Below, one piece after another: positions 48,983 to 49,777 of a stretch of DNA of 64,000 bases (the first letter of the stretch is position 1; each line of letters opens with the position of its first letter). The notes beneath the pieces were generated by a model. That model saw only the letters and a program-made list of their open reading frames with translations. It was not told where the DNA came from and made no database searches. The position numbers and the translations under genes were made by a program. Location: sequence record PQ511149.1. The stretch is one strand, 5' to 3'. The stretch comes from Escherichia phage NHEP11.

Positions 48983-49180
48983 TTAGCAAGAATAACTAGA
49001 TGATACCCAGCCTTGAACAGTAATGCTATTATTAGATAATGAGATTGCGTTCTGGAGATTCAGACCTGCGTTATCTTCAATCCATAATGTAACTTCTTCG
49101 CGTTCTTCTGTTGCAATTTGGAACAGGTTTTCTAGAGCAGCTACTGCGGTACGTACAGCACAATCTAATTCACGAGACAT
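48983..49180 (-). CDS. small protein, WVSSSxxC-tail family
   Basis: 65 aa; ends QGWVSSSYSC. Confidence 0.45.
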   Translation of the reverse strand: MSRELDCAVRTAVAALENLFQIATEEREEVTLWIEDNAGLNLQNAISLSNNSITVQGWVSSSYSC

Positions 49181-49189
49181 ATGGTTTCC

Positions 49190-49462
49190 TTAGCAAGTGT
49201 GAGAAGATGCAACCCAACCGCCATCTTCAAGGCTCAGGTTGTAGTCGTATTGGTAAACGTCGGCCCATTCAGCATAGCCGTTTTTTGTACAACGTTCAAG
49301 ATCGGCTTTAAGATGTCCTGGTGAATGATATGTTCCACCCATACCATAAGCTGGATACAAGTCGAATGTTGTGTTTTGTTTATTAGCAATTTCTTTGGCG
49401 GCCTCAATAGCTGCATAGATTTTTGCTACGGCTTCAGCCAGTTCGGTTTGTTCTTTAGACAT
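49190..49462 (-). CDS. small protein, WVSSSxxC-tail family
   Basis: 90 aa; ends GGWVASSHTC; stop-SD-start spacing to the next paralog. Confidence 0.45.
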   Translation of the reverse strand: MSKEQTELAEAVAKIYAAIEAAKEIANKQNTTFDLYPAYGMGGTYHSPGHLKADLERCTKNGYAEWADVYQYDYNLSLEDGGWVASSHTC

Positions 49463-49471
49463 AATGATTCC

Positions 49472-49777
49472 TTAGCACAACGCAGAAGACGAAACCCAAG
49501 CACCTTCAGTAATAACGTAACCATTACCTTCACGCTTAACATCGCCACCATTATTTTCTATTTCATTTTTCATCCACTGGGATACGATTTCACCCTTAGG
49601 ATAATAAGTACGACCGCTACCATAATCACCTACAGAAAATGATACGGCATATTGGTCTGCGATCTTTGTTGCTTCTTCTTCGATACGTTCAGCTTGATTC
49701 AGAAGTTTGTAAATTGCATCTGAAGCGGATTTGGCATCATTAAACTCTGGTACTTTAATTTCAATAATCTTACTCAT
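49472..49777 (-). CDS. small protein, WVSSSxxC-tail family
   Basis: 101 aa; ends GAWVSSSALC. Confidence 0.45.
   Translation of the reverse strand: MSKIIEIKVPEFNDAKSASDAIYKLLNQAERIEEEATKIADQYAVSFSVGDYGSGRTYYPKGEIVSQWMKNEIENNGGDVKREGNGYVITEGAWVSSSALC

Follow-up and report, generated by a model that had tools for sequence, protein, structure and literature searches.

We analyzed a 64,000-nucleotide (nt) stretch of Escherichia phage NHEP11 (PQ511149.1), hereafter the window, which carries three tandem open reading frames (ORFs) at positions 48,983 to 49,777 whose products end in variants of one ten-residue tail. A large family of proteins found only in phages is defined by this tail, which hardly varies among its members. 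The family is genomically coupled to one conserved nucleotidyltransferase (NTase) of MenT-type fold, encoded downstream of the tail genes on the same strand, and the near-constant pairing of the two across very different phages points to an undescribed two-part phage system, in which the enzyme is probably contacted through the tail. Literature searches on DUF7275/DUF7277, RB69ORF134c-139c and related concepts found nothing on this module, both partners of which are annotated merely as hypothetical proteins or domains of unknown function (DUFs). The pairing turns three anonymous ORFs into a testable hypothesis of one enzyme and one ten-residue tag. The components of the module in the window are as follows.

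49472-49777, minus strand: paralog 1, 101 amino acids (aa), ending in GAWVSSSALC; RB69ORF139c equivalent; phrog_899
49190-49462, minus strand: paralog 2, 90 aa, ending in GGWVASSHTC; phrog_899; YGMGGTY central motif as in paralog 1
48983-49180, minus strand: paralog 3, 65 aa, ending in QGWVSSSYSC; RB69ORF136c equivalent; phrog_4882; short form without YG-x-G
49475-49504, minus strand: tail codons of paralog 1 (G-A-W-V-S-S-S-A-L-C), read directly from the sequence and conserved family-wide
49193-49222, minus strand: tail codons of paralog 2 (G-G-W-V-A-S-S-H-T-C), from the sequence and family-wide conservation
48986-49015, minus strand: tail codons of paralog 3 (Q-G-W-V-S-S-S-Y-S-C), from the sequence and family-wide conservation
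49468-49477, minus strand: junction TGC-TAA-GGAA (Cys codon, stop, Shine-Dalgarno) between paralogs 1 and 2, with the ATG 9 nt past the stop
49186-49195, minus strand: junction TGC-TAA-GGAA between paralogs 2 and 3, identical in sequence to the previous one
47696-48652, minus strand: 318-aa DUF7277+DUF7275 protein, RB69ORF134c equivalent, predicted Pol-beta-fold NTase and partner of the tail proteins

Three paralogs and a family defined by its C-terminal tail

A first-pass annotation, made from the DNA alone, had reported consecutive ORFs of 65, 90 and 101 aa with these three endings, each stop being followed about 9 nt later by the next ATG, and a common junction sequence on the plus strand. 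The coordinates and tails proved exact on the minus strand. At both internal junctions the coding strand reads TGC TAA GGA Axx xxx ATG (plus-strand reverse complement TTCCTTAGCA), both spacings are 9 nt, and the Shine-Dalgarno sequence AAGGAA overlaps the stop codon. The translational coupling that had been asserted can be kept as a suggestion, its basis being this spacing and overlap. Upstream, the ATG of paralog 1 overlaps the stop codon of an e.3-like gene (ATGA).

Pairwise BLASTP comparisons support the proposed paralogy, giving E-values of 9e-6 over 73 residues (101 versus 90 aa), 7e-4 (65 versus 90 aa) and 0.011 (65 versus 101 aa). The 101- and 90-aa copies have a central YG-x-G-x-TY motif in common, which the 65-aa copy lacks. 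The N-terminal parts, which had been described as different, are indeed divergent, yet they are still homologous and contain a long helix in all three proteins. The suggested diversification around a fixed C-terminal module was borne out, with a near-invariant tail carried on bodies that are only 23-32% identical to one another. Alignment with relatives and structure prediction, both recommended as checks, gave conserved frames and a confident model, respectively. Comparison of close relatives gave 124 nucleotide differences within the three ORFs, of which 100 are at third codon positions. The changed codons comprise 97 synonymous and 21 non-synonymous cases. This pattern indicates that the frames are conserved under purifying selection. 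A six-frame scan of the window found the C-terminal tail pattern only in the three paralogs. Judged by these comparisons, the three ORFs are real paralogous early-region phage genes. In the RB69 reference genome, paralog 1 (RB69ORF139c) is shortened to 71 aa by a frameshift after ..EIVSQW and has lost its tail, which reflects either a mutation of the laboratory strain or a sequencing error.

All three proteins belong to known phage protein groups: the phrog_899 hidden Markov model (HMM) matches the 101- and 90-aa copies (E-values of 1.8e-22 and 2.2e-18), and that of phrog_4882 matches the 65-aa copy (1.7e-36). A word-indexed search returned few relatives; a profile was built from the first matches and run on 1.84 billion representatives, which yielded at least 151 clusters (50% identity) at E <= 1e-3, nearly all of 75-110 aa and aligned through the final residue. 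The family HMM also matches the ortholog of the 65-aa paralog in locus L010 (E = 2e-4). Family proteins range from about 45 to 170 aa, and 175 of 192 retrieved homologues end exactly in Cys, preceded by G-x-W-x-[S/A/P]-S-S-x-x. The consensus of the tail is G-x-W-x-S-S-S-x-x-C-COOH, which all three ORFs of the window carry. When 148 unique tails from the loci were tabulated, Trp was present in 140, Ser -4 in 147 and Ser -3 in 139, while the terminal Cys is found in all 148 by construction, only Cys-ending tails having entered the tabulation. Conservation is also seen in the central part of the proteins, in a YGMGGTYYP motif that the 65-aa paralog lacks. Most tail ORFs (194 of 247) fall into one BLAST-linked superfamily, and smaller separate clusters bear the tail on other or longer bodies. 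About 8-15% of the members contain two or three tandem W-x-S-S-x-C units with acidic linkers between them, which is the behaviour of a short linear motif rather than of a purely structural element. Examples are P0134, P0157, P0180 and an ORF at 5537-5959 of locus L046; the inner units are often followed by Y-G-E-x-D, as in ..DWLSSSCYGEGDEAF..VWMSSSC.

The AlphaFold2 (AF2) model of the 101-aa protein is confident (predicted local distance difference test score, pLDDT, of 92), with a long helix at residues 15-43, a small sheet, and the tail forming a strand (93-96) and a helical turn (97-100). Comparison of this structure with the Protein Data Bank (PDB) gave no fold similarity to the antitoxin MenA1 or to any other chain. 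Searches of the family profile against PDB sequences returned coiled-coil and designed-helix noise only, and scans of the three proteins with Pfam, NCBIfam and PADLOC gave nothing above curated cut-offs. XkdF and E217_Gp32, which appeared as weak matches under these cut-offs, were rejected as chance. No real instance of the tail pattern was found in a whole-genome scan of phage T4. The best match to a T4 gene with a name, tk.1, is weak, partial (central motif, E = 0.017) and without a tail, and was not accepted as a homologue. Its product Tk.1 (locus L004, 10346-10534) resembles the central motif in LSFEISSEYGDAETYY, and on this similarity it could be a remote tail-less relative or a chance match.

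Linkage of the tail genes to a MenT-fold nucleotidyltransferase gene

In the window, the gene for the 318-aa DUF7277/DUF7275 protein lies about 330 nt downstream of paralog 3 on the same strand. Weak tblastn matches led to the corresponding regions of three unrelated phages (Pseudomonas Otagovirus phiPsa381, Erwinia jumbo phage Hallingskeid and E. coli Phapecoctavirus tuntematon), where homologues 43-45% identical to the 318-aa protein are encoded just downstream of tail genes. The NTase is therefore much more conserved across E. coli, Pseudomonas and Erwinia phages than the bodies of the tail proteins. Acinetobacter KARL-1 has the same arrangement, and for family member P0029 the DUF7277/DUF7275 gene lies two genes downstream. 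In Hallingskeid (locus L008, 2176-4962), one tail gene comes right after RNA ligase and polynucleotide kinase genes for tRNA repair, a gene order that is a possible hint towards a tRNA function.

The linkage was examined in both directions. In the forward direction, 80 IMG/VR loci were collected with a profile of the 318-aa NTase. With a strict tail pattern, 72 of them have at least one same-strand tail ORF within 3.5 kb upstream of the NTase gene (165 ORFs), and with a relaxed pattern this number rises to 75 (219 ORFs). By comparison, a tail match was found in only 4 of 14,550 other ORFs of these loci. Three of the loci missed by the strict pattern have shortened tails (W-V-Q-S-S-C, W-D-S-S-T-C and W-D-G-S-S-C). 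The number of tail copies per locus varies from one to six (one to five under the strict pattern; six family-HMM matches in locus L084). In the reverse direction, a degenerate DNA pattern for the tail followed by TAA was run across all IMG/VR and produced 33 matches, 31 of which are real tail ORFs. Wherever the locus DNA reaches at least about 1.5 kb past the tail gene, an NTase gene is present downstream, with the exception of L103. There, an ORF for an HNH-type endonuclease (1736-2194, minus strand) directly follows the tail gene at the expected place of the NTase gene, and the locus ends at that point; it may be a homing-endonuclease insertion that splits the module.

In an all-vs-all clustering of the neighbourhoods, no gene family accompanies the tail genes as widely as the NTase does. 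The 83-aa ORF that lies between the two partners in the window was considered as a third component and rejected: jackhmmer finds it in 12 of the 80 loci only, and these belong to close T4-like relatives. It is lineage-specific and stands outside the conserved module. T4 itself was searched for an NTase homologue as well as for tail genes, and neither was found. The NTase occurs in 733 of 50,697 phage records (~1.4%); among 185,579 species genomes it was detected in 5 loci only, all on contigs of metagenome-assembled genomes (MAGs), with tail ORFs adjoining it in 4. The module is phage-specific. Its carriers include T4-type phages such as Mosigvirus, Phapecoctavirus, Otagovirus and jumbo phages, and some of them belong to groups considered for therapy.

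Alignment of the NTase homologues gave 55 invariant columns, including G6-S7, D25-x-D27, E69 and K125, which on sequence grounds we read as the signature of a Pol-beta nucleotidyltransferase (hG-S...D-x-D...E, invariant throughout), as well as a dense set of invariant His, Asp, Glu and Cys residues at 165-281. The AF2 model (pLDDT 92.5) matches MenT1 best, and also ANT(2''), TglT and LnuA, which are enzymes moving a nucleoside monophosphate to a hydroxyl. The protein thus combines the MenT-type Pol-beta fold with its catalytic G-S, D-x-D, acidic residue and Lys. These structural matches align just 113-149 of the 318 residues and leave about half of the NTase outside all of them, by inference including its highly conserved C-terminal part. 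A Pfam scan (E <= 0.1) detected DUF7275 and DUF7277 only and no DUF1814/AbiEii, and a search of the NTase profile against PDB sequences returned nothing.

Shorter homologues of the NTase (250-263 aa) with no tail genes upstream are encoded by Streptomyces phage Beuffert (L090), Gordonia phage Smoothie (L091) and Vibrio phage K412 (L092), near RNA ligase, tRNA cluster or NAD-salvage genes. A gene of about 100 aa follows the NTase gene in all three and could encode a different partner. These tail-less homologues have Ile at the position of Cys272 and Lys, Val or Phe at that of His174, whereas all tail-associated NTases retain both residues. This correlation, drawn from three related and phylogenetically non-independent sequences, is a weak hint of a thiol or metal contact. 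Cys243, also considered as a tail-linked residue, was discarded, as it varies (C/Y/M/A) among tail-associated enzymes. By eye, the NTase segment C272-T-S-I-T-S-G-W279 has the Trp-to-Cys spacing of the tail in reverse, which we mention as a curiosity only.

Possible roles of the tail and the enzyme

The reading we favour, with a confidence that stops a little short of even, takes the three paralogs and the NTase as a conserved two-component module in which the tail would be a portable recognition tag for the enzyme. The tail would place a serine hydroxyl (Ser -4 or -3) and the adjacent terminal Cys in the NTase active site, and one conserved NTase would covalently nucleotidylylate, or otherwise process, one to six rapidly diverging small proteins, whose variable bodies may act on host factors in takeover or counter-defence. 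We prefer it because the bodies diverge and multiply against a fixed tail and enzyme, the motif is repeatable, the structural relatives of the enzyme act on hydroxyls, and a precedent exists in MntA-HepT. In this type VII toxin-antitoxin system (MNT-HEPN), the small partner of a Pol-beta-fold NTase is also its substrate for covalent (poly)adenylylation (PMC7641770), so that an NTase modifying its partner is the very logic proposed here. The two systems differ in several respects: the tail proteins show no HEPN Pfam match or R-x4-6-H motif, the acceptor in MntA-HepT is a Tyr in a folded RNase rather than a candidate Ser of the C-terminal tail, enzyme and partner genes come in the reverse order, and the present module is confined to phages.

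Other enzymes provide more distant parallels. GlnD/GlnE and DrrA are NTase-fold enzymes with specific small target proteins, in which they put uridine or adenosine monophosphate onto a side-chain hydroxyl, namely of Tyr in host regulators; no homology to them is detectable, and here it is a tail-tagged family that is encoded beside the enzyme. The holo-ACP synthases CitX/MdcG, which are 2.7.7-class transferases, load a single serine of the small carrier proteins CitD/MdcC (about 100 aa, encoded nearby) with a group derived from a nucleotide. The acceptor Ser of these carriers is internal and they have no terminal Cys; no similarity to either partner was detected. The internal proteins of T4 bear a short conserved N-terminal capsid-targeting sequence that is cleaved by the prohead protease, and they likewise represent fast-diverging small phage proteins with a common terminal tag read by one phage enzyme or machine. 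Their tag is N-terminal rather than C-terminal, and nothing indicates packaging of the tail proteins. Overall, the module works most like pairs of an NTase and a small partner (MenAT and MNT-HEPN), from which it is set apart by sequence family, type of partner and habitat.

The more specific proposal, that a MenT-fold NTase reads the tail W-x-S-S-S-x-x-C-COOH and covalently modifies diversifying small effectors as a new tag-and-enzyme system, is one that we put forward tentatively and with rather more doubt than belief. The modification could be a stable Ser-O-nucleotidylylation, or an activation that is followed by elimination and formation of a thioether ring by the terminal Cys. In the latter, speculative extension, the nucleotidylylated Ser would be eliminated and the Cys would close the ring on the folded protein, and this would account for the constant distance from Ser to Cys as well as for the invariance of Cys272 and His residues in the enzyme. 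If true, the tag-and-enzyme reading would add a new class to the post-translational protein modifications encoded by phages, one present in over 700 sequenced phages; with the tail as the substrate, it would be a new protein-modification system and possibly a portable tag for biotechnology.

Several points weigh against the favoured reading. In the window, the paralogs and the NTase gene are not adjacent: a hairpin, a promoter-like site and the unrelated 83-aa gene lie between them. In 4 of the 80 loci, which are related to one another, the tail genes lie about 5 kb from the NTase gene on the other strand. In the AF2 model the tail is part of the folded small protein, with the Trp in a beta-strand and Ser-Ser opening a helical turn, so the tail may be a structural element rather than a free tag. 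Serine nucleotidylylation alone leaves the invariant terminal Cys unexplained, and none of the models considered here fully accounts for a Cys as the last residue. By analogy, the action of MenT toxins on tRNA and the block of MenT1 by a small protein encoded upstream would fit inhibition at least as directly. Finally, physical contact between tail and NTase, the serine as the acceptor and the biological role are inferred. The four rearranged loci (L049, L050, L053 and L078 of IMG/VR) have no tail gene upstream of the NTase, in which Trp279 is replaced by Arg; their tail ORFs (..GTYAWCSSSMEC, ..WWESSEEYWDDSGC) are located downstream, and the module appears to have been rearranged.

The main rival, which we consider unlikely while giving it real weight, is that the small proteins are inhibitors or regulators of the kind known from MenAT1. 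The NTase would be the effector; it might, for instance, extend host tRNA 3' ends with nucleotides for translation shut-off or to counter a tRNA-targeting defence, and the small proteins encoded upstream would bind, block or time its active site with the tail as a plug. MenT1 is the best structural match of the NTase, MenT toxins act on tRNA 3' ends (PMC10435456), and gene order and partner size are as in MenAT1 of Mycobacterium tuberculosis, in which the 68-aa, mostly helical MenA1 is encoded upstream and blocks the MenT1 active site (PMC10435456). Moreover, the module is often near tRNA or tRNA-repair genes, such as the adjacent polynucleotide kinase and RNA ligase genes of Hallingskeid and the tRNA genes about 4 kb away in the window. 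However, the C-terminus of MenA1 is dispensable for inhibition (PMC10435456), while the C-terminus is the most conserved part of the proteins described here. The MenA1 gene is single-copy, and one to six fast-diverging paralogs with one invariant tail would be needless for inhibition. No relationship to MenAT1 was seen at the sequence level (no DUF1814 match of the NTase and no PDB sequence match), and the partners here do not resemble MenA1 in fold. Nor do the tail proteins correspond to the known antitoxin types of MenT/AbiEii systems, that is, a MenA1-like helix pair or a COG5340/AbiEi winged helix-turn-helix-kinase. Those systems are addiction or abortive-infection modules of chromosomes and plasmids, whereas the present module belongs to lytic phages and not to bacterial chromosomes (5 MAG loci against 733 phage records). 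If the small proteins were inhibitors, this would be the first case of lytic phages deploying a MenT-like toxin module. With either outcome, a recurrent block in the hyperplastic early region of T4-like genomes would gain an assigned function.

An adaptor role seems quite improbable. The tail would dock the small protein on the NTase, and the variable body would bring a host target (protein or RNA) to be nucleotidylylated. The linkage evidence bears on this idea as it does on the substrate model, from which nothing computational separates it, and a constant tail on variable bodies in variable copy number would suit a set of substrate adaptors. Against it, the bodies are very small (45-100 aa) and mostly of the one superfamily, which limits the diversity of targets, and family-library scans found no known target-binding domain in them.

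Slightly less probable again is an independent chemistry of the tail, with the co-location of the NTase gene reflecting a shared pathway or timing only. The terminal thiol might bind a metal or Fe-S cluster in an oligomer, serve in redox or persulfide carriage, or take part in a modification of the S-x-x-C-COOH end like those of ribosomally synthesized and post-translationally modified peptides (RiPPs). The invariant terminal Cys and the extra Cys-ending W-x-S-S-x-C units would suit thiol chemistry, and the end recalls C-termini that form lanthionine or aminovinylcysteine (AviCys): Ser/Thr-x-x-Cys is present in all three ORFs, which is a resemblance of sequence only. The retention of Cys272 and His174 in tail-associated NTases would fit as well, the correlation being one of three related sequences. 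On the other side, the NTase is the sole partner that is widely co-conserved; genes for a dehydratase, a LanD-type flavoprotein, a radical-SAM enzyme or a sulfurtransferase are not, and the neighbouring genes contain no LanB/LanM/LanKC or LanD Pfam match. The predicted compact folded domain also differs from the leader-core architecture of such peptides. Sulfur carriers of the ThiS/MoaD type are a poor comparison, since the tail proteins end in x-x-Cys instead of Gly-Gly and have a helix with a small sheet and no beta-grasp match.

That the ORFs arose by chance, or are a non-coding repeat translating to similar tails, has next to no probability and is already refuted by the conservation data, namely the confinement of the motif to three ORF ends in 64 kb, the dominance of third codon positions among the differences and the tail at the exact C-terminus in hundreds of divergent homologues, together with the confident AF2 model.

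Genomic context and neighbouring features

Over a 1.6-kb stretch around the paralogs, identity is 99.9% to Escherichia phage NHEP36 and 97-98% to many Mosigvirus genomes; the source is an RB69-like (Mosigvirus) T4-type phage. The three paralogs lie between the e.3-like gene and the RB69ORF135c/134c equivalents, in the early minus-strand hyperplastic region, with e, nudE and the tRNA genes nearby. In annotated relatives all three ORFs are hypothetical proteins, and the annotation notes of one phage compare them with RB69ORF136c to RB69ORF139c. The remaining features around the module are listed below.

49837-49865, minus strand: promoter-like TTTACG-17-TATAAT inside the e.3-like gene, upstream of the paralogs (consensus match only); annotated as a T4 middle-type promoter in phage SA79RD
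48977-48949, minus strand: promoter-like TTTACA-17-TATAGT overlapping the hairpin below
48940-48967, minus strand: 11-bp hairpin 3' of paralog 3 (-16 kcal/mol, z -2.9), with a weak U-tract past the stem; annotated as a rho-independent terminator in phage SA79RD
48681-48932, minus strand: 83-aa ORF, RB69ORF135c equivalent, phrog_3723, containing C-T-I-C-P, with its own promoter-like site; between the paralogs and the NTase gene

A 'sulfurtransferase' label in phages JK45 and vB_Eco_F27 was traced to an e.4-like membrane protein (50112-50537 of the window; JK45 locus 5513-5908) and not to the paralogs. It is probably an annotation artefact, as family searches do not support it.

A second C-terminal motif, F-[IV]-x-E-C-R, was observed in five minus-strand genes of the window (50476-51099, 50112-50537, 49774-50133, 47319-47624 and 46140-46631), whose products end in ..EQFIMECREYVKANPVHAN, ..MEFVKEIRCKSLSS, ..ENFIKECRK, ..ENFIKECRGK and ..ERFITECRNLR. 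They comprise the e.5-, e.4- and e.3-like genes and two others, and several of them resemble membrane proteins. Going by this common ending, they may form a second tail-marked paralog family that flanks the module.

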